Of a DNA stretch of 64,000 bases, positions 11,564 to 46,498 are shown piece by piece. Both the position numbers and the translations under genes were made by a program. The stretch comes from an uncultured Anaerolineales bacterium. Lineage in GTDB: Bacteria > Chloroflexota > Anaerolineae > Anaerolineales > UBA11858. Numbering within the stretch: position 1 is the stretch's first letter; every line of letters starts with the position of its first letter. The notes beneath the pieces were generated by a model that saw only the letters and a list, made by a program, of their open reading frames with translations, was not told the origin of the DNA and did no database searches. Location: assembly GCA_964453155.1 (NCBI GenBank), contig CAYVQU010000002.1, positions 11,240-75,239 on the forward strand, written 5' to 3'.

Positions 11564-11573
11564 CAAATCGCTC

Positions 11574-12208
11574 GGCGATAAATCATCGAGCTAACGGCTA
11601 AAGGACGGTGAACCGCCCTGTTATTAGCCCCAGCGGGGCTTGCGCTCTGAGCCTGGGAGTTTACCCCCAGGCGTTAGGAGGGAACTATGCCATATTGGCG
11701 ACTTTTCTATCACATTACTTGGGGGACGAAGCATCGATTACCACTCATCGAAAATTCTTGGGAAGATGATCTTTATGGTTATTTGTGGGGTAAAACGGAT
11801 GCTTTAGGTTGCATTCCGCACGCGATCATTGGGGTGGTAGATCATGTGCACATTGTTATTTCGATTCCCCCGAAGTTTGCGGTGGCAGAAGTTATTGGGA
11901 AACTCAAAGGTGCGAGTTCCCACCATGTCAATCAAACGATTTTGGGGGAGAAGAATTTTTATTGGCAAGCAGAATATGGGGTGATGACATTTTCTGAGCG
12001 GCACCTTTCAACGGTTGTAGCATATGTGCAAAATCAGAAGAAGCACCATGCTGAAGAATGGTTGTGGCCGATATTAGAGAGTCGTTCGATTGGAGCGCCC
12101 AGCGATAAATCACCGGGTTAAACGCTCAAGGACGGTAAACCGCCCTGATTATTAGCCCCAGCGGGGCTTGCGCGCTGAGCCTGGGGGTTTAGCCCCTGGC
12201 GAATTAGG
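11574..12208 (+). mobile_element. IS200/IS605-family element (tnpA only) with ~105-bp hairpin-bearing ends in direct orientation
   Basis: Coordinates 11574-11678 and 12102-12208 are near-identical direct repeats. Each carries two hairpins (AGCCCCAGCGGGGCT and GCCTGGG...CCCAGGC). They flank a Y1 HUH transposase gene. Confidence 0.7.
11687..12121 (+). CDS. tnpA: IS200-like Y1 (HUH) transposase TnpA
   Basis: It has the HUH motif (HVHIVISIP), a catalytic-Tyr region (VVAYVQNQKKHH) and the N-terminal block YHITWGTKHRLPLI. The length is 144 aa. Confidence 0.85.
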   Translation: MPYWRLFYHITWGTKHRLPLIENSWEDDLYGYLWGKTDALGCIPHAIIGVVDHVHIVISIPPKFAVAEVIGKLKGASSHHVNQTILGEKNFYWQAEYGVMTFSERHLSTVVAYVQNQKKHHAEEWLWPILESRSIGAPSDKSPG

Positions 12209-21376: not shown

Positions 21377-21628
21377 GTTTTTTTAGGAAATGGGTATTTG
21401 GTGATTAGGTGATAAGGCAACCTGTTACCTGATCACTTGTTACCTGGTCACCTGCCCCGAAATTATGCTCCTGCGGGGAGGGTTGATCACCCATAAAATA
21501 TAAGTGGTTGGGGGTGGGATGGTTTAGGATTGTTTTAATATTCGAACGATTTACCATCCCACCTTGGCAAATTTCGGTTCGAGCAAGATTTAAATTTTCA
21601 CGCTATCTCCGAAATTTGCCGAGAGAAA

Positions 21629-22550: not shown

Positions 22551-23048
22551 TCATTTGAAGAAGAGATTATACGCTAAAACTGTGTTTACCAGGGTTAAAA
22601 CCGCCCCGATTCCTAGACCAATTGGGAGGGAGATCAGAATATGCTTGCGCATGGATTCTTTTCCCAGCGCGGCAGGGAGTTTGAGGAAATCGGGTCGCCA
22701 TTTGGCGAGAACGAAACCGTCAATCACGATGGTATCGTAAGCAAAAAAGACCAGATATAACCCATAATTCAGGAGTAGAAGTGTCTCAAAGTCCAGCGAA
22801 ATTCCCTGGCGGGCAAGGTTGAAGTAATTAGCAGCTAAAGTTAACCCCAGAAAAAAGAGCGGAAGGATCATCATCGCCAAAATCCCCTGGAGGGGGATCT
22901 TTTCTTTGAGCAGGCCGTCTTCATTTCGGGCGGTGTAGACCAATCTTGTCCGGAAGGCGACCACAACAAAAACACTAAAGGCTGCGATGCCAATCAAGCC
23001 CCAGATGGTCAAAAACGAAATGAGCGTTGACGATGTCATTAGAATCAT
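22551..23048 (-). CDS. integral membrane protein, unknown function
   Basis: The ORF is hydrophobic with 4-5 TM segments. I trimmed it to the ATG at 23048 because the TTG-initiated codons up to 23063 lie inside a REP palindrome. Confidence 0.5.
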   Translation of the reverse strand: MILMTSSTLISFLTIWGLIGIAAFSVFVVVAFRTRLVYTARNEDGLLKEKIPLQGILAMMILPLFFLGLTLAANYFNLARQGISLDFETLLLLNYGLYLVFFAYDTIVIDGFVLAKWRPDFLKLPAALGKESMRKHILISLPIGLGIGAVLTLVNTVLAYNLFFK

Positions 23049-23050
23049 TT

Positions 23051-23080
23051 TGTAGGGACCCAATATATTGGGTCCCTACA
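23051..23080. repeat. REP-like palindrome variant TGTAGGGACCCAATAT/ATATTGGGTCCCTACA
   Basis: It is a 30-bp perfect palindrome. Its right arm supplies the last Leu codon and the TAG stop of the DtxR-family gene. Confidence 0.8.
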
Positions 23081-28212: not shown

Positions 28213-29409
28213 ATGCAATATCGTAAATTTGGTTCTTTAGATTTCGCCGTTTCCGCCTTGGGGTTCGGTTGTATGCGCCTCCCCGGGCGCCGCTTTAGCC
28301 TGATGGGGGCGGACACAAATGAGTCCATCAAAATTATTCGTTCAGGGATCGATCAGGGCATCAACTATATCGATACGGCCTGGCCCTACCACCTGGGTGA
28401 AAGCGAAAAAGTTTTGGGTTTGACGCTGAAAGATGGTTACCGCGCAAAAGTCAAACTGGTGACCAAACTGCCCATGTTTTTAGTTCGTAAAACTGAGGAT
28501 TTTGACCGTTATCTGAACGCCCAACTCGAACGCCTACAAACTGAAACTATCGATATTTATCTCTTCCATGCCATGAATGCGGGTGGATTGGAGAAAGTCA
28601 AACGGTTGGGTTTGATCGAAAAAATGGAAGCGGCCCAGCGTCAGGGTCGGATTCAGCACATCGGGTTCTCGTTCCATGATACCGCGCCAGTTTTTCGTGA
28701 GATCATCGATTACTACGATTGGGATATGACCCAAATCCAATACAACTATATGGATACCGGTTTTCAGGCCACCACGGCCGGGCTTGAGTATGCCCATGAA
28801 AAAGGGATCGCCGTCGTCATCATGGAACCGGTCAAGGGTGGAACACTGGCAAATCCCCCGGCGGAAGCCCTGGCCGTGATGAATTCGGCCGCTGTGAAAC
28901 GCACGCCAGTCGATTGGGCCCTCCAATTCTTATGGAATCGGCCCGAAGTCGCGACCGTCATCAGCGGGATGGGCACTCAGCAAATGGTGGACGAAAACTG
29001 TGCCAGTGCCGCCCGTTCGGGGATCAACTCACTCAGCCCTGAAGATGAAGCAATCATTGAAAAACTGGCTGCCATTTACCAGCAAAAAATCCTGGTTCCC
29101 TGTACTGCCTGTGAGTATTGTATGCCTTGTCCGGCGGGGGTTAACATCCCCCAAAATTTTGCCATTTTGAACAATCTCTCGCTTACTGATGGCCGTCTCC
29201 GAAAATTCATGACGCGCCGGGATTATGGCAAATTGGCGAATACCAAAGCCCAACTCAACTCAGAGAAAACCAACGGGAATGCGGCCATGTGTGCGGATTG
29301 CGGCCAATGCGTCGAAAAATGCCCGCAGAACATCAACATCCCGGTTGAATTAGAAAAAACCCATGCAATTTTGGGAAAAAGAGAGGCAATTGAACAATAT
29401 TACACGTAA
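28213..29409 (+). CDS. aldo/keto reductase with C-terminal 4Fe-4S ferredoxin-type domain
   Basis: The AKR N-terminus shows LGFGCMRLP and IDTAWPYH. Two C-terminal Cys clusters are present (CTACEYCMPCP and CADCGQCVEKCP). Confidence 0.8.
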   Translation: MQYRKFGSLDFAVSALGFGCMRLPGRRFSLMGADTNESIKIIRSGIDQGINYIDTAWPYHLGESEKVLGLTLKDGYRAKVKLVTKLPMFLVRKTEDFDRYLNAQLERLQTETIDIYLFHAMNAGGLEKVKRLGLIEKMEAAQRQGRIQHIGFSFHDTAPVFREIIDYYDWDMTQIQYNYMDTGFQATTAGLEYAHEKGIAVVIMEPVKGGTLANPPAEALAVMNSAAVKRTPVDWALQFLWNRPEVATVISGMGTQQMVDENCASAARSGINSLSPEDEAIIEKLAAIYQQKILVPCTACEYCMPCPAGVNIPQNFAILNNLSLTDGRLRKFMTRRDYGKLANTKAQLNSEKTNGNAAMCADCGQCVEKCPQNINIPVELEKTHAILGKREAIEQYYT

Positions 29410-29614
29410 GTGCGTGGCGATTTGTGGTTTATGAGAAAACTGGCAAGATTATCCGCCGCGCCTGAGCAGATTTCGGTTTGCACGGAAATTTTATTGCATA
29501 TTATGTATGATCTCAATTTTTCGGAGCTAGCAACCAGCATCCTGAGTTACGGAATGTATCAAAGGATACTGGTCAGGCTTAGCCTCGAAGCTCTGAGAGG
29601 ATACCAAAATCTGC

Positions 29615-30169
29615 TTGGGATCCAAAATGGATTTGGACATGTGGCCGTTCGATAATCTGACAATCCAGGCCGCCTTGTTAAAAATCTCGATCTTCTGGCC
29701 AACTAAATATAATGCCCCCTGGCTGCCAGCTTCCATGGAAATTGTGCATAAAACGTTGCAACTTGCCGAGGTCGGGCCTGAAGACCTGATCTATGATCTC
29801 GGTTGCGGCGATGGACGTACCATCATCACGGCCGCCCGCGACTATGGGGCCAAGGCGGTAGGCATCGAGCTTGATCTGCTTCGTTATCTATGGTGTCAAT
29901 TGCTGGTTACCATTTTGGGTTTGCGCGGGCGGGTCAGAATCATCTACGGCGATTTCTTTCAGCACAATATCAGCGCAGCCGATGTAGTCACCTGTTACTT
30001 GGGGCAGGCTACCAACGAGACATTACAAACCAAATTTGAACAAGAGCTACGGCCTAATGCTCGAGTTGTATCCTATAACTTCACCTTTCCTAAACTAAAC
30101 CTCATCAGCCAAGACGATCAAGCCGAACTTTTTCTGTACGACTTACGCGCATCTGATCAACAGAATTAA
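29615..30169 (+). CDS. small class I SAM-dependent methyltransferase, paralogue A
   Basis: It has motif I (IYDLGCGDGR). It is clearly paralogous to 31592-32131 along its length. The start codon is uncertain. Confidence 0.65.
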   Translation: MGSKMDLDMWPFDNLTIQAALLKISIFWPTKYNAPWLPASMEIVHKTLQLAEVGPEDLIYDLGCGDGRTIITAARDYGAKAVGIELDLLRYLWCQLLVTILGLRGRVRIIYGDFFQHNISAADVVTCYLGQATNETLQTKFEQELRPNARVVSYNFTFPKLNLISQDDQAELFLYDLRASDQQN

Positions 30170-30172
30170 TAA

Positions 30173-30365
30173 CTCATGTTACGCACGAAGCATCCCTTCG
30201 ACAGGCTCAGGACAGGCCTGAGTAAGTCCGCAGGACCGTATCGAAGGGTGCGGGTCGTCCAAAAATTCACCCTTCGATACGCTAGCGCTACTCAGAGCCT
30301 GCACTGAGCGCAGTCGAAGTGATGAATTTTCAAGCATATTTTCTCAACCTTGCGTAACATCAGTT
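30173..30365 (+). mobile_element. 193-bp MITE-like element, copy A (TA-flanked, terminal inverted repeats)
   Basis: The terminal inverted repeats are ACTCATGTTACGCA and TGCGTAACATCAGT, with TA on both flanks. The interior is self-complementary (for example CGTATCGAAGGGTG / CACCCTTCGATACG). Confidence 0.75.
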
Positions 30366-30433
30366 AATAACAATTAAAAGACCAAGAAACCAGAAATTTT
30401 CCTCTAGCATTTCTGGTTTCCTTAGGAAAAAAT

Positions 30434-31357
30434 ATGCCCCCAAAATGGACGCAACAAGACATTCCTGATTTATCGGGAAAAATCATTGTCATCACCGGTG
30501 CCAATAGCGGTTTAGGTTTTGAATGTTCGAAGACTTTTGCAGAAAAGGGCGCCACCGTCGTGATAACCGCCCGCAACCTGACCAAAGGTGAGCAGGCCAA
30601 AGCAGGAATTCTCAAAGCATTTCCAAATTCTCCTCTGGACCTGATGAAACTCGATGTCGGTGACTTAACCTCCGTGCGGGAATTTTCCGAGGCTTTCAAG
30701 GAAAAATATGATCGTCTCGATATTTTGCTCAACAACGCGGGAGTAATGGCCATCCCGCGGCAGGAAACTGTTGATGGTTTCGAACAGCAGTTGGGCGTCA
30801 ACCACCTGGGACACTTTGCTCTGACTGGGTTACTCCTGGACGCCATAGTGAAAACTCCTGGCGCTCGTATTCACAATGTCACCAGCAGCGTTCATTGGAT
30901 TGGGCGGTTCAATTTCGAGGATCTGATGGGCCAGAAGAAGTACAACCGCTGGCGGGCTTATGGACAGAGTAAACTTGCCAATGTATGCTTCACTTATGAG
31001 TTACAAAAACGGCTGCAAACAAACGGGTACGATACGATTGCGAATACATCACATCCGGGATTTGTAATCGGCCAATTGCAAGCAAACAGCATTGAACAAT
31101 CAGGGACCCCACTAGAAGGATTGCTTTACACCCTTGGTAAACCGCTAGTAGCCCAAGATGTTACAACAGGTGTGCTGCCAATGCTCTACGGGATGACAGC
31201 TCCCGCGGCCAAAGGCGGTGTATTCTATGGGCCAAGCTTCTTGAGTATGCGCGGCTACCCCAAGGAAAATATACCCAACAAAGCAGTTAACGATGCAGCC
31301 ATTCTCAAGCGTATTTGGGATGTATCGGAAGAATTGACCGGTGTTCAATTTCTTTAA
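30434..31357 (+). CDS. SDR-family oxidoreductase (classical short-chain dehydrogenase)
   Basis: It has the cofactor motif VITGANSGLGFE, NNAG, and YGQSK for the YxxxK catalytic motif. The stop codon overlaps the TA flank and end of MITE copy B. Confidence 0.85.
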   Translation: MPPKWTQQDIPDLSGKIIVITGANSGLGFECSKTFAEKGATVVITARNLTKGEQAKAGILKAFPNSPLDLMKLDVGDLTSVREFSEAFKEKYDRLDILLNNAGVMAIPRQETVDGFEQQLGVNHLGHFALTGLLLDAIVKTPGARIHNVTSSVHWIGRFNFEDLMGQKKYNRWRAYGQSKLANVCFTYELQKRLQTNGYDTIANTSHPGFVIGQLQANSIEQSGTPLEGLLYTLGKPLVAQDVTTGVLPMLYGMTAPAAKGGVFYGPSFLSMRGYPKENIPNKAVNDAAILKRIWDVSEELTGVQFL

Positions 31358-31549
31358 CTCATGTCACGCACGATATGCAAAATGAGCCAGAAAATTCATC
31401 CCTTCGACTGCGCTCAGTGCAGGCTCTGAATAGCGATAGCGTATCGCAGGGTAAATTTTCGGATGAGCCGCACCCTTCGATATGGTCCTTCGAACTTACT
31501 CAGGCCTCACCTGAGCCTGTCGAAGGGATGCTTGTTGCGTGACATCAAT
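31357..31549 (-). mobile_element. 193-bp MITE-like element, copy B (inverted relative to copy A)
   Basis: It is close to the reverse complement of copy A along its whole length. The terminal repeats are ACTCATGTCACGCA and TGCGTGACATCAAT, and it is TA-flanked. Confidence 0.75.
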
Positions 31550-31591
31550 TATTAAACCTTAGCGGTTGGCGCCTTTTCGTGCGATTCTACA

Positions 31592-32131
31592 ATGGCAGTC
31601 TATATTCTCGCAATCTTAATTATCGTTATTGTCATCTCCATCTTCCTGGCGGACTTCTTCGGTGCACCGTGGGTACCAACACCGCGGAAATTAGTGCCTA
31701 GAATGCTGACCCTGGCCGAGGTTGGTCCTGACGACGTCGTTTATGACCTGGGATGTGGGGATGGGCGGATTCTCATCACCGCGGCTCGAAAGTATGGGGC
31801 CAGAGCCGTGGGGATTGAAATCGACCCCCTGCGATACTTATGGTGTCAGATCATGGTTACCCTGTTCGGCGTTCGAGACCGAGTCATCGTCGTTTATGGG
31901 AATATCTTCACAGAAAATTATCATCCCGCCACGGTGGTCACCTGTTTCCTCCGCCAGCGCACGAATAATAAATTGGAAAAAAAACTGCTCGCAGAATTGA
32001 AACCGGGCACCCGGGTAGTTTCCAACACATTTATTTTTCCCACCATTCCTGCGGTGGGAGGCGACGACACAATTCGGTTATATCTTTTTTATCCAGATAA
32101 AACCGAGGGTTTGAAAAAATCATTATTTTAG
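31592..32131 (+). CDS. small class I SAM-dependent methyltransferase with N-terminal TM helix, paralogue B
   Basis: It has an N-terminal TM helix (ILAILIIVIVISIFLADFF) and motif I (VYDLGCGDGR). Confidence 0.65.
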   Translation: MAVYILAILIIVIVISIFLADFFGAPWVPTPRKLVPRMLTLAEVGPDDVVYDLGCGDGRILITAARKYGARAVGIEIDPLRYLWCQIMVTLFGVRDRVIVVYGNIFTENYHPATVVTCFLRQRTNNKLEKKLLAELKPGTRVVSNTFIFPTIPAVGGDDTIRLYLFYPDKTEGLKKSLF

Positions 32132-32170
32132 GGCGCGTTTTGCTCCTGCAAAAAATCAGAGCAGCAGGGG

Positions 32171-32200
32171 TTGACAAATCTGGGTCACTAGAGAGATACT
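32171..32200 (+). promoter_or_regulatory. possible promoter (TTGACA, 18-bp spacer, GATACT)
   Basis: TTGACA lies at 32171-32176 and GATACT at 32195-32200, upstream of the hydrolase gene. Confidence 0.35.
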
Positions 32201-32344
32201 TTTATCAAATATCAAATTTTTTTATGCAGATTTCGGAACGCTTTTTAAAATAGCATTTAAATTTAGACCGAAATCTGCTCAGGCGGTGCGGTAAACCAAG
32301 TTGGTTGGTTTAAAGCACAAACCGCAGCGCACTTAGGAGGCAAC

Positions 32345-33181
32345 ATGCACCACGCGGAGGGCAATTTCAAAGGGGTACGAGATGCAAATATTTACTATCA
32401 AAACTGGCTACCAGATGGGGAAGTAAAAGCTGTGCTGCTGGTCGTTCATGGGCTAGGCGAACATTGTGGCCGTTATATGAATGTAGTCAATCACTTTGTT
32501 CCACGGGGATACGCGGTCTACGGTCTCGATAATATCGGCCATGGCCGCTCAGATGGGCAGCGCGAATTTGTCGATAAGTTTACAGATTTCACCATTACAC
32601 TGAAGACCTTTTATGATTTGGTCGCGGCCGCGCAACCCGAAAAACCAATCTTCCTACTAGGGCACAGCATGGGCGGGGCGATCGCGACGTATTATCTTCT
32701 CGACCACCAGGATGATTTCAAAGGCGCAATTTTGTCAGCTCCGGGGGTAAAAATTGGAGAAGGGATTTCGCCAGTAGCGATCACGATGAGCAAAATATTA
32801 TCAAAGTTGGCCCCTAAAATGGGTGTAGTCGCGTTGGATCCGAACGCCATCTCACGGGATCCGAAAGTGGTAGAAACATATCGTAATGACCCCCTGGTTT
32901 TCTCTGGAAAAACACCGGCCCGATTGGGTGCAGAATTTCTAACCGCAGTTGAACGCATCGGTAGCGAGGCAGACAAGATTGCTTTGCCACTGATCATGGT
33001 TCAGGGCGCAAAAGACACGCTCGTCGAACCAGCTGGGGCCCAGATGCTGTATGACCAGGTCACTTCAGCCGATAAAACCATCAAAATTTACCCCGAGATG
33101 TATCACGAGGTCTTCAACGAACCTGATCGAGATTTGGCCCTCAAAGATGTCGAGGAATGGCTGGAAAAACAACTTAACTAA
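32345..33181 (+). CDS. alpha/beta hydrolase (lysophospholipase/monoacylglycerol lipase-like)
   Basis: It has the oxyanion region HGLGEH, the nucleophile elbow GHSMGG, and a C-terminal His in YHEVFNE. Confidence 0.8.
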   Translation: MHHAEGNFKGVRDANIYYQNWLPDGEVKAVLLVVHGLGEHCGRYMNVVNHFVPRGYAVYGLDNIGHGRSDGQREFVDKFTDFTITLKTFYDLVAAAQPEKPIFLLGHSMGGAIATYYLLDHQDDFKGAILSAPGVKIGEGISPVAITMSKILSKLAPKMGVVALDPNAISRDPKVVETYRNDPLVFSGKTPARLGAEFLTAVERIGSEADKIALPLIMVQGAKDTLVEPAGAQMLYDQVTSADKTIKIYPEMYHEVFNEPDRDLALKDVEEWLEKQLN

Positions 33182-33182
33182 C

Positions 33183-33212
33183 AAAAAAGAGCGCTCTCGG
33201 GCGCTCTTTTTT
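33183..33212. terminator. bidirectional Rho-independent terminator
   Basis: AAAAAAGAGCGC-TCTCGG-GCGCTCTTTTTT lies between convergent genes. Confidence 0.75.
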
Positions 33213-33237
33213 GATTCTTGATCCCGCTGGCAAATGA

Positions 33238-34179
33238 TTATCTTTTCGCAGCCTGATTGACCTCGATGGTAATATGCGCCAGCCCCAAATCAGTAGGGAG
33301 AAGTTGTTTATATTCATCCGGTGACCGCAGGTTTTCGGCCAGTAGTGAAATAATAACGCTGTTCATTTTCGGCCCAATCGACCAAAGATGTAAGTCCGTG
33401 ACCTGAGCGCCGCTGGCTTCCAAAGCCGTCTGTATTCGCTGGCGAAGAGTAGCCGAACCCTGCTTATCTAGCAGGACAGCGCTGGTGGTGCGGATCAGCC
33501 CCAGGGACCACTTCGACACCCAAAATGCGCCGACCAACCCCATCAGGGGATCCATCCAACTCAGGCCGAGAAATTTTCCGCCCAAGAGAGCGAAAATCGC
33601 CAGTAGGGAAGTCAGGGCATCGGCCAAAACGTGCAGATACGCGGCCCGCAAGTTATGATCGTGATGCTCGTGTTCGTGGTCATGGTCGTCATGCTGGTGA
33701 TCATGGTCGTGTTCGTGATCGTGGTTGTCTCCCAAAATTAACACCGAAACCCCGTTGACGATCAGTCCCAACACGGCGACAAAAATGGCCTGATTGAATG
33801 CGATCTCCACCGGGTTGAGCAGCCGGTCGACGCTCTCCCAGGCCATCATTAGGGCAAAGATGGCCAGCAAAACAGCCCCCGTAAAACCACCCAGGGCATT
33901 GACTTTACCGGTCCCAAAGCTAAAGGTGTGGTTATGGGCCTGCCGCCGGGCGTAGACATAGGCAAAGACGTTGATGGTCAGAGCCGCGGCATGAGAGGCC
34001 ATATGCATCCCATCGGCCAGCAGTGCGATCGAGCCAAAGAGTACACCGGTGGCAATTTCAACCACCATCATGGTGGCGGTGATAATAATAACGATTAAGG
34101 TGCGCAGCTCCCCGGTCCGCTTTTCATCCTGACCGAAGGCATGACTGTGTTGCCATTGTTTGAGATTTGTATTTTGCAT
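33238..34179 (-). CDS. cation diffusion facilitator (CDF) metal efflux transporter with His/Asp-rich loop
   Basis: It has six TM segments, the CDF signature region (LLADGMHMASHAAAL) and the loop DNHDHEHDHDHQHDDHDHEHEHHDHN. Confidence 0.85.
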   Translation of the reverse strand: MQNTNLKQWQHSHAFGQDEKRTGELRTLIVIIITATMMVVEIATGVLFGSIALLADGMHMASHAAALTINVFAYVYARRQAHNHTFSFGTGKVNALGGFTGAVLLAIFALMMAWESVDRLLNPVEIAFNQAIFVAVLGLIVNGVSVLILGDNHDHEHDHDHQHDDHDHEHEHHDHNLRAAYLHVLADALTSLLAIFALLGGKFLGLSWMDPLMGLVGAFWVSKWSLGLIRTTSAVLLDKQGSATLRQRIQTALEASGAQVTDLHLWSIGPKMNSVIISLLAENLRSPDEYKQLLPTDLGLAHITIEVNQAAKR

Positions 34180-34285: not shown

Positions 34286-34543
34286 TTACTTTTGGATCGT
34301 GTATACGTTTGGAATCTGCGCACAAGCGCGAACCAAAACCGGAGCACAATTACTGGCTCCCGGACCACAGGAGCAATTGTCTCCTTCTCTTTCATCAGCT
34401 TGAATTTGCAAGCGCCCCTTCTGCACCCAAAACTGGATCATCCCTTCTAGGGCGGCAGGCTCAATTTCCATCTTCCGGCCCAATTCACTGACCGTGATCG
34501 GCCCGCGGGCATTTTCAATTTCACACAATACTTGATTTAACAT
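34286..34543 (-). CDS. feoC: FeoC-like winged-helix protein with Cys-rich tail
   Basis: It is 85 aa, with a wHTH (ITVSELGRKMEIEPAALEGMIQFWVQKGRL) and then the cysteines CSCGPGASNC. It lies immediately downstream of feoB. Confidence 0.6.
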   Translation of the reverse strand: MLNQVLCEIENARGPITVSELGRKMEIEPAALEGMIQFWVQKGRLQIQADEREGDNCSCGPGASNCAPVLVRACAQIPNVYTIQK

Positions 34544-34554
34544 AATAATCCATT

Positions 34555-34580
34555 GTAGGGGCGCAATCGTGCGCCCCTAC
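34555..34580. repeat. REP-like hairpin GTAGGGGCGCA-ATCG-TGCGCCCCTAC
   Basis: It has an 11-bp stem and a 4-nt loop, and sits between feoB and the feoC-like gene. Confidence 0.8.
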
Positions 34581-36847: not shown

Positions 36848-36979
36848 AAAGTGTGATGTCTGATACCATTTTCGCATATTTCGGCAAGAATCTGAAAATA
36901 AGAAGATCCATCAAGCCAAAATTTGCTCAGGTGTGGCGTTAAAATTTGCTCGTTTTATTATTAGCAACAAACCGCCAAC

Positions 36980-44700: not shown

Positions 44701-45217
44701 CCCCCGTTTCGGCAAGGATTTCCCCAAAGTCCGTGCCGCCCTGGCAGCCCTGGACCCCGCCGAAGTTGCTGAAACTGTTGCAGCCGGTAAACCGGTCACC
44801 TTCGAAGTGGCCGGTGAAACCATCGAGTTGGCCCCCGACGAAGTCCTGGTCAACACTGAGTCGGCCGAAGGCATGGCCGTCGCCGCCGACAAAATCGTCA
44901 CCGTCGCCATCGACACCGTCCTGACCCCCGAACTGAAAGCCGAAGGACTGGCCCGCGAACTCGTCCGCCGCATCCAGGCCCAGCGCAAAGACGCCGATTT
45001 TAATATCGAAGACCGCATCACCACCTGGTATCAGGCTGAAGATGACCCTTCGACAGGCTTAGGACAGGGACTGGCCGAAGTTTTTGCGACCTTCGCCGAC
45101 TACATCCAAGCTGAAACCCTGACGACAAAACTCGTCGCCGGGGAACCGCCCGCAGAGGCCTACACCGAAACCCACAAAGTCGAAGGCCAGGAGGTCACCA
45201 TCGGCGTGAAGAATTAA
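41780..45217 (+). CDS. ileS: isoleucine--tRNA ligase
   Basis: It has a class I HIGH-type motif (NNPMGVHHGWGR), an editing-domain insert, a Zn-type Cys cluster (CDECGHYH...CDKCES), a KMSKS-position variant (MHKSWGNS) and an anticodon-binding region. I preferred the ATG at 41780 (GGAG 6 nt upstream) over the one at 41768. Confidence 0.92.
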   Translation: MAFKQVPNKVDFVDQEHEVLAFWKDTDAFEKSRALRKDKPTWSFIDGPITANNPMGVHHGWGRTYKDLYNRFWTMTGRELRYQNGFDCQGLWVEVEVEKEKGFKSKMDIEEYGLDEFVKECKARVLRYAGVQTHQSMRLGYWMEWNDPEKLNMLADKLLEDPLQEITFTGPNGKTVTDTVEQVVGQLGLAQLGGSYFTFSNENNFMIWKMIKKSWENGWLYRGADVMPWCPRCATGISQHEIVTDGYMELTHRSVTLRFPLRDKPGESLLVWTTTPWTLTSNVAAAVGPELDYVKVKNNGHILYMSKGTLHMLKGDYEVLAELKGAEMEGWTYDGPFDDLPAANTPGGVTYLDELIEGITATAVTSHQVILWDEVGEAEGTGIVHIAPGCGAEDFELGKEHNFPLIAPIEDEGAFIDGFGWLTGMHVSEVADPIFEDLKKKGVLYVVEPYTHRYPTCWRCKTELVFRLVDEWFISMGQLHDKPREQVTAAEKQESLRYQIMDVVDQIRWIPEFGHKRELDWLRNMHDWMISKKRYWGLALPIWVCDECGHYHVIGDDHELEERAVEGWDEFAGHTPHRPFIDAIKIVCDKCESKMSRIPDVGNPWLDAGIVSFSTLGYRDDPEFWQKWYPADWISESFPGQFRNWFYSMLTMGTVLDGSPSFLENFGYASLHAEDGREMHKSWGNSIEFNEAADKMGVDTMRWLYCAHKPENNLLFGYNRAEETRRRFIIPLWNVYSFFSTYASLDGWVPTVENFEPGTPEGPTPQSDNPLDAWILARLNQVVARVTDNFTNSDAYTATLAFEALMDDLSNWFVRRSRRRFWKSEQDNDKNTAYATLWHVLVKMGRALAPVIPFITEVMYQNLVRGVFDEAYESVHHTDWPEIDEAAIDEKLVYQMGLARRVASLGLSARGNAGLKVRQPLAKVLAHVSEGEAELNQELVDIVADELNVKALQFVEDAGDLVSYKVLPVNKVLGPRFGKDFPKVRAALAALDPAEVAETVAAGKPVTFEVAGETIELAPDEVLVNTESAEGMAVAADKIVTVAIDTVLTPELKAEGLARELVRRIQAQRKDADFNIEDRITTWYQAEDDPSTGLGQGLAEVFATFADYIQAETLTTKLVAGEPPAEAYTETHKVEGQEVTIGVKN

Positions 45218-45225
45218 TCTACGAC

Positions 45226-45253
45226 GTAGGGGCGCAATATATTGCGCCCCTAC
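45226..45253. repeat. REP palindrome GTAGGGGCGCAATAT/ATATTGCGCCCCTAC
   Basis: It is a 28-bp perfect palindrome between the ileS stop and the RAYT RBS. Confidence 0.9.
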
Positions 45254-45271
45254 CCGTATTGGGAGGAATTT

Positions 45272-45823
45272 ATGACCAGGGGACGAAAACCAAAATACGA
45301 TCCACAAAAACACCAGCGTAAATCCATTCGGTTGCGGGGCTATGACTACACCCAAGCAGGCGCGTATTTCGTGACCATTTGCACTTATCAGCGGGAATGT
45401 TTGTTCGGTGAAATTATGAACGAGGAAATGGTCTTAAACGAATTGGGTGTTATTGCAAATGAATGTTGGCGCGCCCTTCCTGAACATTTCCCTCGCGTAG
45501 AATTGGGGGCGTTTGTGGTTATGCCTAATCATGTGCATGGGATTGTTATCATTACCGAATCCAAGGTAGGGGCGCAGCATGCTGCGCCCCTACGACAGCA
45601 ATCAATAAACGTGAAACCCGGATCACTAGGCGCAATTGTGCGTTCATTCAAAGCCGCCGCCACTCGCCGCATTGGACGCGAACAAGGCATATCAGGCATT
45701 TGGCAGCGCAATTATTACGAACACATCATTCGCAACGAGGTCGGCCTGCACCGCATTACTGCTTACATCGAAGCTAACCATGCAAATTGGGAAACAGATA
45801 GTGAAAACCCTAAAAATATTTGA
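45272..45823 (+). CDS. REP-associated tyrosine transposase (RAYT, IS200-like Y1 HUH family)
   Basis: It has the HUH motif (PNHVHGIVII) and the catalytic region WQRNYYEHIIRNE...ITAYIEAN. A GGGAGG RBS lies before the ATG at 45272. REP palindromes lie upstream, inside and downstream. Confidence 0.85.
   Translation: MTRGRKPKYDPQKHQRKSIRLRGYDYTQAGAYFVTICTYQRECLFGEIMNEEMVLNELGVIANECWRALPEHFPRVELGAFVVMPNHVHGIVIITESKVGAQHAAPLRQQSINVKPGSLGAIVRSFKAAATRRIGREQGISGIWQRNYYEHIIRNEVGLHRITAYIEANHANWETDSENPKNI
45566..45593. repeat. REP palindrome variant GTAGGGGCGCAGCAT/ATGCTGCGCCCCTAC inside the RAYT CDS
   Basis: It is a 28-bp perfect palindrome, in frame, encoding VGAQHAAPL between the HUH and Tyr motifs. 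Confidence 0.85.
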
Positions 45824-45862: not shown

Positions 45863-46498
45863 ATGCGCATTTTAGCCCTTTGCGACGACATCTGGCATCC
45901 GGCGCAAGTTGTTCAAGACGGGTTGTTAGGTCTAGAAAAACACGGTTTTGAATTCGACTTCATAACTAACGCGCGGGAATGGTCTTCCGAGCGAATGGCC
46001 GAATATCCGCTGGTGATTTTGGCAAAGGCGAATAATATCTCAGCCGCTGATGAAACGCCCTGGATGATACCCGAAGTGGCGCAGGTTTTTCAGGAGTATG
46101 TCCAGACCGGGAATGGGTTGTTGGCAATCCATTCGGGGACGGCGGGATATGCGGATACACTGGTTTTACGGAGGGTGTTGGGTGGTGTGTTTCGAGAGCA
46201 TCCGGAGCAGTGTGAGGTGACAATAAAATCCGTCGTAGGGGCGCAATATATTGCGCCCCTACCATCTAACGAATTCTCCATTATGGATGAACATTATTTC
46301 ATGGAATTGGATGATGATCAGGCCACAGTGTTTATGACAACCACGTCCGAACATGGGACCCAACCGGGGGGTTGGACGCGGATGGAGGGGGATGGAAGGG
46401 TGTGTGTGTTGACACCAGGGCATAATTTGGCGGTATGGGAGCAGCCGGTGTATCAGGATTTGATTGAGCAGGCAATAAATTGGGCTGGTAATTTGTAG
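45863..46498 (+). CDS. ThuA-like (class I glutamine amidotransferase-like fold) protein
   Basis: It is 211 aa with a ThuA-type layout (MRILAL.DD.WHP...LLAIHSG...HPE...TPGHN). It contains an in-frame REP palindrome. Confidence 0.6.
   Translation: MRILALCDDIWHPAQVVQDGLLGLEKHGFEFDFITNAREWSSERMAEYPLVILAKANNISAADETPWMIPEVAQVFQEYVQTGNGLLAIHSGTAGYADTLVLRRVLGGVFREHPEQCEVTIKSVVGAQYIAPLPSNEFSIMDEHYFMELDDDQATVFMTTTSEHGTQPGGWTRMEGDGRVCVLTPGHNLAVWEQPVYQDLIEQAINWAGNL
46235..46262. repeat. REP palindrome identical to 45226-45253, inside the ThuA-like CDS
   Basis: It is a 28-bp perfect palindrome, in frame, encoding VGAQYIAPL. Confidence 0.9.

Follow-up and report, generated by a model that had tools for sequence, protein, structure and literature searches.

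The locus described here raises the question of whether two small repeats lying in inverted orientation around a single gene moved that gene as a cassette or were inserted, one by one, into a gene cluster that was already in place. The window, i.e., the whole stretch of 64,000 nucleotides that was analysed, comes from an uncultured Chloroflexota bacterium and harbors a same-strand cluster of five genes in the order AKR (aldo/keto reductase), MTase1, SDR, MTase2, and hydrolase. MTase1 (29639-30169, forward strand) codes for a small SAM-dependent methyltransferase of 176 aa (Pfam CMAS/Methyltransf_25). All its homologs begin with MWxFDNL, and the ATG at 29639 is a more likely start codon than the TTG at 29615, from which the gene had been read in an earlier interpretation of the letters alone (hereafter, the sequence-only reading) and which is probably too early. 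The SDR gene (30434-31357, forward strand) codes for an adh_short protein of 307 aa, as supported by the Pfam domain, a syntenic relative, and the alignment of the C-terminus; MTase2 (31592-32131, forward strand; 179 aa) is orthologous to the only methyltransferase located after the SDR gene in that relative. According to the sequence-only reading, the block would be a composite MITE-bounded cassette inserted into, or driving, a tandem duplication of the methyltransferase genes.

The repeat finder retrieved two inverted arms of 202 nt each (30166-30367 and 31354-31555), 85% complementary to each other and spaced by 986 nt. The corresponding hairpin repeats are copy A (30166-30370, forward strand), which was defined through the repeat finder, the alignment to copy B, and the RNA and DNA folds, and copy B (31351-31555, reverse strand, inverted with respect to A), defined through the repeat finder, the alignment to copy A, and the RNA fold. 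The alignment of the two copies revealed 32 differences over 205 gapless columns (85% identity), with no identical run longer than 28 bp. The element is 194-205 bp long, has equal length in A and B, and its interior is not A+T-rich, being made of GC-rich CCCTTCGA/TCGAAGGG arms. Copy A lies directly 3' of the MTase1 stop codon (TAA, 30167-69), and the terminus of copy B contains the SDR stop codon (TAA, 31355-57). These data confirm the inverted pair around the SDR gene, as well as the claim that exactly one gene, coding for a 307-aa SDR and overlapping the end of copy B with its stop codon, is enclosed.

Both ends of both copies carry terminal inverted repeats of 14 nt, which might extend to 20 nt. 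In copy A, the left one (ACTCATGTTACGCA, 30172-30185, forward strand) has its partner at 30351-30364 (TGCGTAACATCAGT), and the similarity may reach 20 nt (TTAATAACTCATGTTACGCA/TGCGTAACATCAGTTAATAA); in copy B, the repeat at 31357-31370 (ACTCATGTCACGCA, forward strand) is matched by that at 31536-31549 (TGCGTGACATCAAT). Within the 64-kb window, TSATGTYACGCA is present once at each of the four element ends and nowhere else, in agreement with the ~14-bp terminal inverted repeats that had been proposed; a search of the window with a longer end pattern likewise gave four matches, vs. 0.00 expected by chance. TA flanks copy A at 30170-71 and 30365-66 and copy B at 31355-56 and 31550-51, as the sequence-only reading had noticed, and TTAA fits equally well in both copies, with exactly 194 bp between the brackets (30166-69/30364-67 and 31354-57/31552-55). 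With TA as the target duplication, copy A spans 30172-30364, and with TTAA 30170-30363; copy B spans 31357-31549 and 31358-31551, respectively. Under the TA reading, the coordinates previously assigned to copy B hold, and those assigned to copy A are off by one. Moreover, the flanking 7 nt are alike in A, B, and the metagenomic contig L021 discussed below (TCAATAA in the latter); since they are similar between copies, they may belong to the element, and the true target duplication would then be undefined.

Each copy is predicted to fold into one long hairpin, with an RNA minimum free energy (MFE) of -88.6 kcal/mol for A (z -8.7) and -78.7 kcal/mol for B (z -6.6), and in both cases 0 out of 200 shuffles were as stable; the DNA fold of copy A gave z -8.3. 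The high self-complementarity of the interiors, which had been recognized by eye, is therefore borne out by these values (z -6.6 to -8.7). The structure predicted from copy A alone was then used as a frame on which the 32 substitutions of B were placed: 12 fall in the 142 paired positions vs. 20 in the 63 unpaired ones, and only five pairs are broken, a number as low as this being reached in none of 20,000 random placements (P<1e-4). Two compensatory double changes distinguish the stems of A and B. A T/C difference of B with respect to A in the terminal repeat can be considered compensatory, since the partner repeat carries the matching A/G. The avoidance of the stem by substitutions, together with the two compensatory pairs, implies that the hairpin is under preservation; on the modelled structure, the stem has been preserved between the two diverged copies.

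The conserved feature does not appear to be a protein. The single open frame of the element differs between A and B by 4 synonymous vs. 20 nonsynonymous codon differences, evenly distributed over codon positions, and a protein-coding element was rejected on this basis. The alignment of its peptide against 5.8 billion protein clusters retrieved no matches, and an exhaustive phmmer search with the other open frame against 1.84 billion representatives retrieved as its sole match an unrelated tandem-repeat ORF (P0241). The idea that peptides such as PFDRLRTGLSK, LSLSKG, and PEPVEG mark a widespread hairpin-repeat class gained no support from the searches and was dropped. Rfam covariance models yielded no match at the gathering score in the whole window, and what appeared at E<=1 in the region 29300-32450 was noise below threshold. 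Downstream of the hairpin, a U-tract is absent at both A and B; neither is, thus, a canonical terminator, and a terminator role was rejected.

The comparison with relatives bears directly on the origin of the arrangement. In the nearest syntenic relative, the order is AKR, SDR, MTase, with the SDR (76% identical) in unchanged position. The relative's methyltransferase (P0124) shares 83% identity with MTase2 vs. 54% with MTase1, and MTase1 is missing from this closest syntenic genome. No similarity to copy B was found in the 180 bp upstream of the relative's MTase2 ortholog, so that copy B is missing from the orthologous gap and appears to be lineage-specific. The interval occupied in the window by MTase1 and copy A corresponds to an AKR-SDR gap of only 87 bp in the relative, in which copy A cannot fit. 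Since the relative has the SDR in place with neither copy B nor room for A, the SDR gene is best regarded as resident rather than delivered by the elements; judging from this synteny, SDR and MTase2 were already at the locus before the elements. A clean empty site was not found in the relative, whose intergenic sequence is too diverged for the flanks to be aligned. The C-terminus of the SDR is QFL* vs. QYL* in the syntenic relative, i.e., the protein ends at its native residue, and the insertion of copy B, as far as the alignment indicates, was precise and left the SDR C-terminus unaltered. A strain variant (L043, 99.0% identical overall) has copy B in the same place, differing at 1 position out of 205.

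The two methyltransferases are indeed paralogous (54% identity over 144 aa), as suggested by the sequence-only reading; a tandem duplication, in contrast, does not follow from the data, the two proteins being 54% identical to each other vs. 75% (MTase1 and its best foreign homolog, P0126) and 83% (MTase2) to foreign proteins. MTase1 is the nearer of the two for 85 out of 120 methyltransferase matches, and MTase2 for the other 35. According to these comparisons, MTase1 and MTase2 are old paralogs belonging to separate subfamilies, and not recent tandem duplicates. Synteny in relatives had been indicated as a check: in the nearest one, the SDR gene does lie between AKR and the MTase2 ortholog.

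As for the distribution of the element, two copies were found in ~73 kb of the genome (the window plus ~9 kb beyond it, L048), both at this locus; the ~9 kb beyond the window contain no further ones. Copy number is where the case for a MITE-like family is weakest. The scan pattern ATGTYACGCAN{3,30}CATCMCTTCGAC, able to recognize each end of A and of B, was searched for as exact matches in 185,579 GTDB species-representative genomes, in the JGI metagenome collection, and in IMG/VR, giving 8, 20, and 0 matches, respectively. By BLAST and nhmmer, these matches turned out to be chance occurrences, except for L021, and several of them fall in a conserved Rhodothermales coding stretch; the metagenome scan is weak negative evidence, since the source contig and sample are not in the collection. 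L021, a contig from an unrelated metagenome, harbors an intergenic terminus, cut by the contig end, that is identical at 19 of 20 positions to the right end of A and is accompanied by the subterminal GTCGAAGGGATG arm. The terminus alone is common to A/B, and L021 has CA where A and B have the flanking TA; its unconstrained flank gives 9/12 matches vs. no more than 7 among 27 chance hits. L021 is, on this similarity, a probable relative of the A/B repeat family.

An IS630/Tc1-type transposase with matching ends had also been expected. Neither the sizeable ORFs of the 64-kb window nor the genes called in the neighbouring ~9 kb contain a transposase domain, and a transposase with matching ends was not retrieved. 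An IS630/Tc1 parentage of the repeat, of the type represented by RUP, would be a guess: the TA flanks are compatible with it, but TTAA fits equally well. BLAST of the element against plasmids gave no matches, and no sequence similarity to described MITE families emerged from Rfam or plasmids.

On the whole, we consider it probable (roughly 0.6) that A and B are diverged, non-coding, non-autonomous, MITE-like hairpin repeats inserted at stop codons, and not the borders of a cassette. The MITE-like anatomy (terminal inverted repeats, TA flanks, self-complementary interior, and placement at gene ends) is supported by the observations; the kind of element is already known, and the repeat family, hosted by an uncultured Chloroflexota bacterium, is previously undescribed. 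Each copy would have entered an AT-rich T-TA-A site at a gene stop codon (that of MTase1 and that of SDR, respectively), leaving the proteins intact, and the two insertions may have been separate, or one copy may have hopped locally over a short distance; any past mobility would have depended on a trans-acting transposase. The elements would be co-transcribed with the cluster, with predicted long inter-cistronic RNA hairpins. By analogy with Correia/NEMIS and ERIC, these would probably act at the RNA level, whether by blocking 3' exonucleases, by being cleaved by RNase III, or by causing partial attenuation.

In principle, the same arrangement might be explained in other ways. The copies could constitute a locus-specific, non-mobile pair, in which an A:B RNA stem of ~172 bp would loop out the SDR cistron for RNase III processing or translational control. 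The cofold of the two copies reaches -293.8 kcal/mol vs. -167.3 for two separate hairpins, 172 A:B pairs are part of the minimum-energy structure predicted for the 1.39-kb segment, the stems are conserved, and the two copies known lie both at the locus (~73 kb searched). However, A is made ~1.2 kb before B, and co-transcriptional folding therefore favours local hairpins; the compensatory changes keep the pairing within each copy, yet create A:B mismatches (85% complementary). The relative does without the elements, the terminus is common to the unrelated contig L021, and the terminal inverted repeats and TA flanks would be left unexplained, which makes this explanation unlikely. A domesticated MITE pair, whose ~172 bp A:B dsRNA stem would be an RNase III-dependent switch uncoupling the SDR from the methyltransferases, is distinctly improbable; if it were true, stem conservation would represent selection on such a pair. 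Long palindromes are prone to copying by template switching or recombination, and a local, transposase-independent origin, with the hairpin copied in inverted orientation across the SDR gene by a replication template switch or by recombination, would suit two copies 1.2 kb apart with no others in ~73 kb. The sharp ends, the same T-TA-A bracket, the same length, and flanking sequence that is not co-duplicated argue against it, as does the presence of the same terminus in another organism (L021); moreover, copies that differ by 15% but have kept their termini are in line with descent from a family, so we hold a local origin to be quite unlikely.

The composite cassette, in which the two copies would have jointly moved the SDR gene into the methyltransferase locus or driven the tandem duplication, draws its appeal from the bracketing of exactly one gene and from known MITE pairs around cargo, such as IMU, NFM2-MITE, and bcr5 (PMC3184786). 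The syntenic relative, however, has the SDR in the same position without the elements, the bounding copies are not near-identical (only 85%), the methyltransferases (54% identical) represent separate old subfamilies, and the GC content across the block is in line with that of the surroundings. The cassette was, thus, not borne out and is very unlikely. Replacement of the SDR gene by a foreign copy would still be compatible with its identity to the syntenic relative (76%), which is about the same as that to non-syntenic homologs (74-76%). A DNA inversion switch, with recombination between the inverted copies flipping the SDR on or off, would be in line with 202-bp inverted repeats around one gene and an identical run of 28 bp, but a single orientation was found in all seven assemblies covering at least part of the locus (L009-L014, L043; different samples), a nearby recombinase gene is absent, and 85% identity makes a poor recombination substrate; we regard it as highly improbable. 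Lastly, imperfect palindromes at gene 3' ends over stop codons, with structure kept more than sequence, recall integron-type attC sites marking gene cassettes. The copies, however, are in opposite orientation and, at ~200 bp, exceed the typical attC length, RYYYAAC/GTTRRRY cores are not at the element ends, no integrase or other tyrosine recombinase was found in the window, and the genes are resident and syntenic. The attC interpretation was rejected on its defining features (core sites, orientation, integrase), and its probability is close to nil.

The reading of A and B as MITE-like repeats is consistent with what is known of such elements. The copies are shorter than ~400 bp without coding capacity, and have terminal inverted repeats and a highly stable predicted structure, in accordance with the defining features of bacterial MITEs; the same literature describes how Correia and ERIC act at the RNA level, with reported effects on neighbouring cistrons (PMC2229807, PMC3184786). 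Correia/NEMIS (Neisseria), ERIC/IRU (enterobacteria), Chunjie (Geobacter), and Nezha (cyanobacteria) resemble A/B in size (100-235 bp), in their terminal inverted repeats, TA termini, and non-coding nature, in the very stable end-to-end hairpin (about -98 to -130 kcal/mol for Chunjie; PMC2229807, PMC3184786), and in lying beside or overlapping gene ends. Unlike the described MITEs, with which no sequence similarity was found, A/B have GC-rich arms and are known as two copies at one locus. The bcr1 element of the Bacillus cereus group (about 155 bp, transcribed) shares with A/B compensatory base-pair changes maintaining a double-stranded structure (PMC3184786), but is cruciform-like, with two stems and 5-bp direct repeats, whereas each A/B copy folds into a single long hairpin flanked by TA or TTAA. 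IMU (pCHE-A) and NFM2-MITE (Tn402-like integron) also consist of two small elements with terminal inverted repeats around coding cargo (PMC3184786); their copies are identical and their cargo foreign, whereas A and B are inverted, 15% different, and surround a resident gene. YPAL/RU-2 (Yersinia, 168 bp) is likewise a long palindromic intergenic element that is not A+T-rich, and its recent mobility is demonstrated by filled vs. empty sites (PMC2229807); unlike A/B, it has no TA at its termini, carries its inverted repeats internally, and shows target duplications of variable length (3 to 26 bp). A limited literature search retrieved no dedicated description of MITEs for Chloroflexota.

Other repeats are present in the same cluster and elsewhere in the window, and this repeat-rich setting speaks for the MITE-like reading. 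An outer inverted pair (29404-29495, forward strand, retrieved by the repeat finder in the AKR-MTase1 gap, and 32249-32340, in the MTase2-hydrolase gap; ~70-75% identity), absent from the sequence-only reading, encloses the whole block. A third copy was found at 36911-36977 (E 2.6e-7), and the pair is, on sequence comparison, part of a dispersed repeat family distinct from and unrelated to A/B. A nested palindrome, i.e., an ancient inverted duplication of the block, was rejected: the two methyltransferases share one strand and, at 54% aa identity, have diverged much further than the non-coding outer repeats, whose third copy lies 4.6 kb off. Outside the repeat, in the interval that separates copy A from the ribosome-binding site of the SDR gene, there is also a perfect 11-bp palindrome (AAACCAGAAAT-N11-ATTTCTGGTTT, 30387-30419, forward strand; fold z -3.25), which might serve as an operator or form a small hairpin. 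Palindromes of REP-like type were found in other parts of the 64-kb window. All four intergenic gaps of the five-gene cluster hold small repeats, belonging to two families.

The meaning of these findings is mostly corrective: what appeared to be a mobile cassette corresponds to two ordinary small repeats placed at stop codons within an old conserved cluster. The A/B repeats also add a MITE-like family not described before to marine Chloroflexota, on whose small mobile repeats little work has been carried out, and the stem of their hairpin is measurably preserved. Since all four gaps of the cluster hold small repeats, the locus could serve to test the effects of hairpins on single cistrons.

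Two copies of a roughly 200-bp hairpin-forming element, A and B, lie in inverted orientation on either side of the SDR (adh_short) gene, which codes for a 307-aa protein. The repeat finder delimited them at 30166-30367 and 31354-31555 (202 nt, 85% complementary), and when A was aligned without gaps to the reverse complement of B, 32 of the 205 columns differed. Both copies end in the terminal inverted repeats ACTCATGTYACGCA and TGCGTRACATSAKT; their 12-nt core, TSATGTYACGCA, has four occurrences in 64 kb, all of them at the ends of A and B, and a longer end pattern also occurs four times, versus 0.00 expected in the 64-kb window. The open frame in the element is non-coding. As RNA, each copy folds into one long hairpin (-88.6 kcal/mol and z -8.7 for A, -78.7 kcal/mol and z -6.6 for B), and the DNA fold of the element has a z of -8.3. 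According to these data, the sequence-only reading of an inverted pair with terminal repeats, TA flanks, and self-complementary interiors was correct, its coordinates for copy A being off by one.

The comparison of the two copies indicates that the stem has been preserved. The structure was predicted from the sequence of copy A by itself and is thus free of consensus-fold bias. Of the substitutions in B, 12 fall in its 142 paired positions and 20 in its 63 unpaired ones, and only five pairs are broken; in 20,000 random placements, so low a number never occurred. The reciprocal test pointed in the same direction, though more weakly, and so did the opposite strand. Moreover, two compensatory doubles were found, one within the terminal repeats at columns 15/191 (T-A to C-G) and one at columns 66/120 (C-G to A-T), and for such changes bcr1 offers a precedent (PMC2229807, PMC3184786). 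For the two sequences compared, this pattern indicates that the hairpin is under selection, as RNA or DNA, or else that one arm of the palindrome has corrected the other.

Multi-copy status is the hallmark of a textbook MITE. Exact, mismatch-tolerant, and profile searches retrieved no further copies in the window, and a further stretch of about 9 kb from this genome contained none; with both open frames of the element as queries, peptide searches gave no real match. Scans of genome, metagenome, and viral collections with exact-match patterns (the metagenome collection lacking the source sample) yielded match numbers near the chance estimate, and BLAST and nhmmer discarded all of them except L021, a 1.5-kb contig that starts within element-like sequence beside a LacI-type regulator gene. 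Its terminus, TTATTGACTGATGTTACGCA, shares 19/20 positions with the right end of A, and 9 of the 12 flank positions outside the pattern-forced bases match, versus at most seven (typically 2-4) in 27 other matches, while its interior is not clearly above background. L021 is thus a probable relative at the terminus level (p about 0.003 after correction, by our own rough estimate). In five other matched contigs (L002, L019, L022, L024, and L029), the flanking sequence is identical and apparently belongs to a coding stretch conserved among Rhodothermales-like genomes; the five therefore represent a single chance event. On sequence grounds, we regard A and B as a MITE-like hairpin repeat of an ordinary kind and a new family in Chloroflexota, with two copies found at one locus.

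The limits of the element can be read in different ways. Both flanks of A and of B carry TA, compatible with elements of 193 bp with flush 14-nt terminal repeats; TTAA brackets the copies equally well, with exactly 194 bp between, and on this reading excising the element and one TTAA would exactly restore both native stop codons. A 20-nt repeat is supported by the conservation of TTAWTRA at four of the five known ends, including that of L021, and in this case no visible duplication would remain. The putative IS630/Tc1 parentage proposed earlier is compatible with the sequence; no transposase or integrase was found in the window, which is core chromosome (glutamate synthase, RNase J, isoleucyl-tRNA synthetase, and an exopolysaccharide cluster).

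The SDR gene (30434-31357) belongs to a cluster of five genes on the same strand, identified through Pfam and embedded amid Feo iron-transport genes: an aldo/keto reductase (AKR) with a 4Fe-4S domain (28213-29409), the small methyltransferase MTase1 (start ATG at 29639, according to its homologs), SDR, a second small methyltransferase, MTase2 (31592-32131), and a Hydrolase_4 esterase (32345-33181). The exact SDR protein recurs, in an identical layout, on several contigs from this population, and in a strain variant (99.0% identical DNA) copy B occupies the same site and differs by one mismatch; the closest relatives of SDR that carry a name, at 66-71%, all belong to Chloroflexota (Caldilineaceae, Anaerolineales, Aggregatilineales, and Phototrophicaceae). 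In the closest different relative, a 63-kb JGI contig with SDR 76% identical and the Feo/AKR/hydrolase neighbourhood in common, the order is AKR, an 87-bp gap too short for MTase1 or copy A, SDR, a 212-bp gap, one methyltransferase, TetR, and hydrolase. This methyltransferase (P0124) shares 83% identity with MTase2 and 54% with MTase1, which makes MTase2 the resident ortholog. The 180 bp upstream of P0124 are available on a short ENA contig: its coding part can be aligned with the window starting at the ATG, and no similarity to copy B was found in these 180 bp. Furthermore, SDR terminates at its native residue (…GVQFL*, versus …GVQYL* in element-free orthologs). Taken together, the relative and the native C-terminus argue that the insertion of B hit precisely the stop codon of a pre-existing gene. 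SDR is therefore resident, and the idea of a composite cassette delivering it as mobile cargo was rejected.

Where the window has copy B, the relative has an unrelated hairpin of its own, ACCCCAAGGGTTTTA…TAAAACCCCTGGGGT (L041, 110-175), a 15-nt inverted repeat with one mismatch in the AT-rich 212-bp gap; in either lineage, the SDR-methyltransferase gap seems to draw in hairpins or to put up with them. Gene content also differs in the region of the window at 32132-34179: the TetR regulator gene of the relative's cluster has no counterpart between MTase2 and the hydrolase, and a cation-diffusion-facilitator gene (33238-34179, minus strand), located between the hydrolase and FeoC, is missing from the relative. 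Directly upstream of the SDR ribosome-binding site there is a perfect 11-bp palindrome, AAACCAGAAAT-N11-ATTTCTGGTTT (30387-30419; fold z -3.25), which could be an operator.

A tandem duplication of the methyltransferases, also proposed earlier, does not hold: MTase1 and MTase2 are 54% identical, and 120 homologs split into two old subfamilies, 85 of them being closer to MTase1 (top identity 75%) and 35 to MTase2 (top identity of a foreign protein 83%). In a distant organism (JGI 3300017613; L045, 1045-4341), four consecutive genes code for two MTase1-like proteins, an SDR of 343 aa, and an aldo/keto reductase of 317 aa; a DDE transposase lies further along. These families seem to form a recurrent functional neighbourhood, and thus their adjacency in the window needs no mobile-element explanation.

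A second repeat family (about 70-95 nt, dispersed, always intergenic; consensus GGCGGTTTGTG…TTTACCGCCnCGCCTGAGCAGATTTCGG) brackets the MTase1-SDR-MTase2 block with an inverted outer pair (29404-29495, plus; 32249-32340, minus), so that, with A and B, a small repeat occupies all four intergenic gaps of the cluster. If orientations were random, such nesting of one inverted pair inside another would arise about one time in four, and it calls for no special cause. A third copy lies at 36911-36977 (minus; E 2.6e-7) and a candidate fourth at 21544-21584 (plus), where the conserved stem GGCGGT/ACCGCC reads GATGGT/ACCATC, a change that may be compensatory; the copy at 32220-32342 folds with z -4.4 to -4.9. 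REP-like perfect palindromes, GTAGGGGCGCAATATATTGCGCCCCTAC, occur at about 23041-23080, 34533-34567, 45215-45254, 45555-45594, and 46224-46263, three of them grouped around two small genes (45.2-46.3 kb); they begin with GTAG, like the GTAG-tagged REP superfamily as outlined in PMC3733652. A direct repeat pair (11569-11673 and 12096-12201; about 105 nt, 83-92% identical, 527 nt apart) lies between a ROK-family gene and an ATC_hydrolase-domain gene.

As for function, A and B lie between co-oriented genes and have no U-tract, which rules them out as canonical terminators. They might anneal with each other in one RNA as a functional pair: A:B pairing is favoured on thermodynamics, kinetics ignored (-293.8 versus -167.3 kcal/mol for two separate hairpins), and the minimum-energy fold of the 1.39-kb segment 30166-31555 contains 172 long-range A:B pairs. 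However, co-transcriptional folding favours local hairpins and the compensatory changes act within each copy, which makes such a pair improbable. RNA-level roles have been reported both for Correia/NEMIS elements (RNase III) and for ERIC elements, where the flanking transcripts differ in stability (PMC2229807, PMC3184786). By analogy, the best-supported role of A and B would be that, transcribed within the gene cluster, they form long inter-cistronic hairpins altering mRNA decay or processing.
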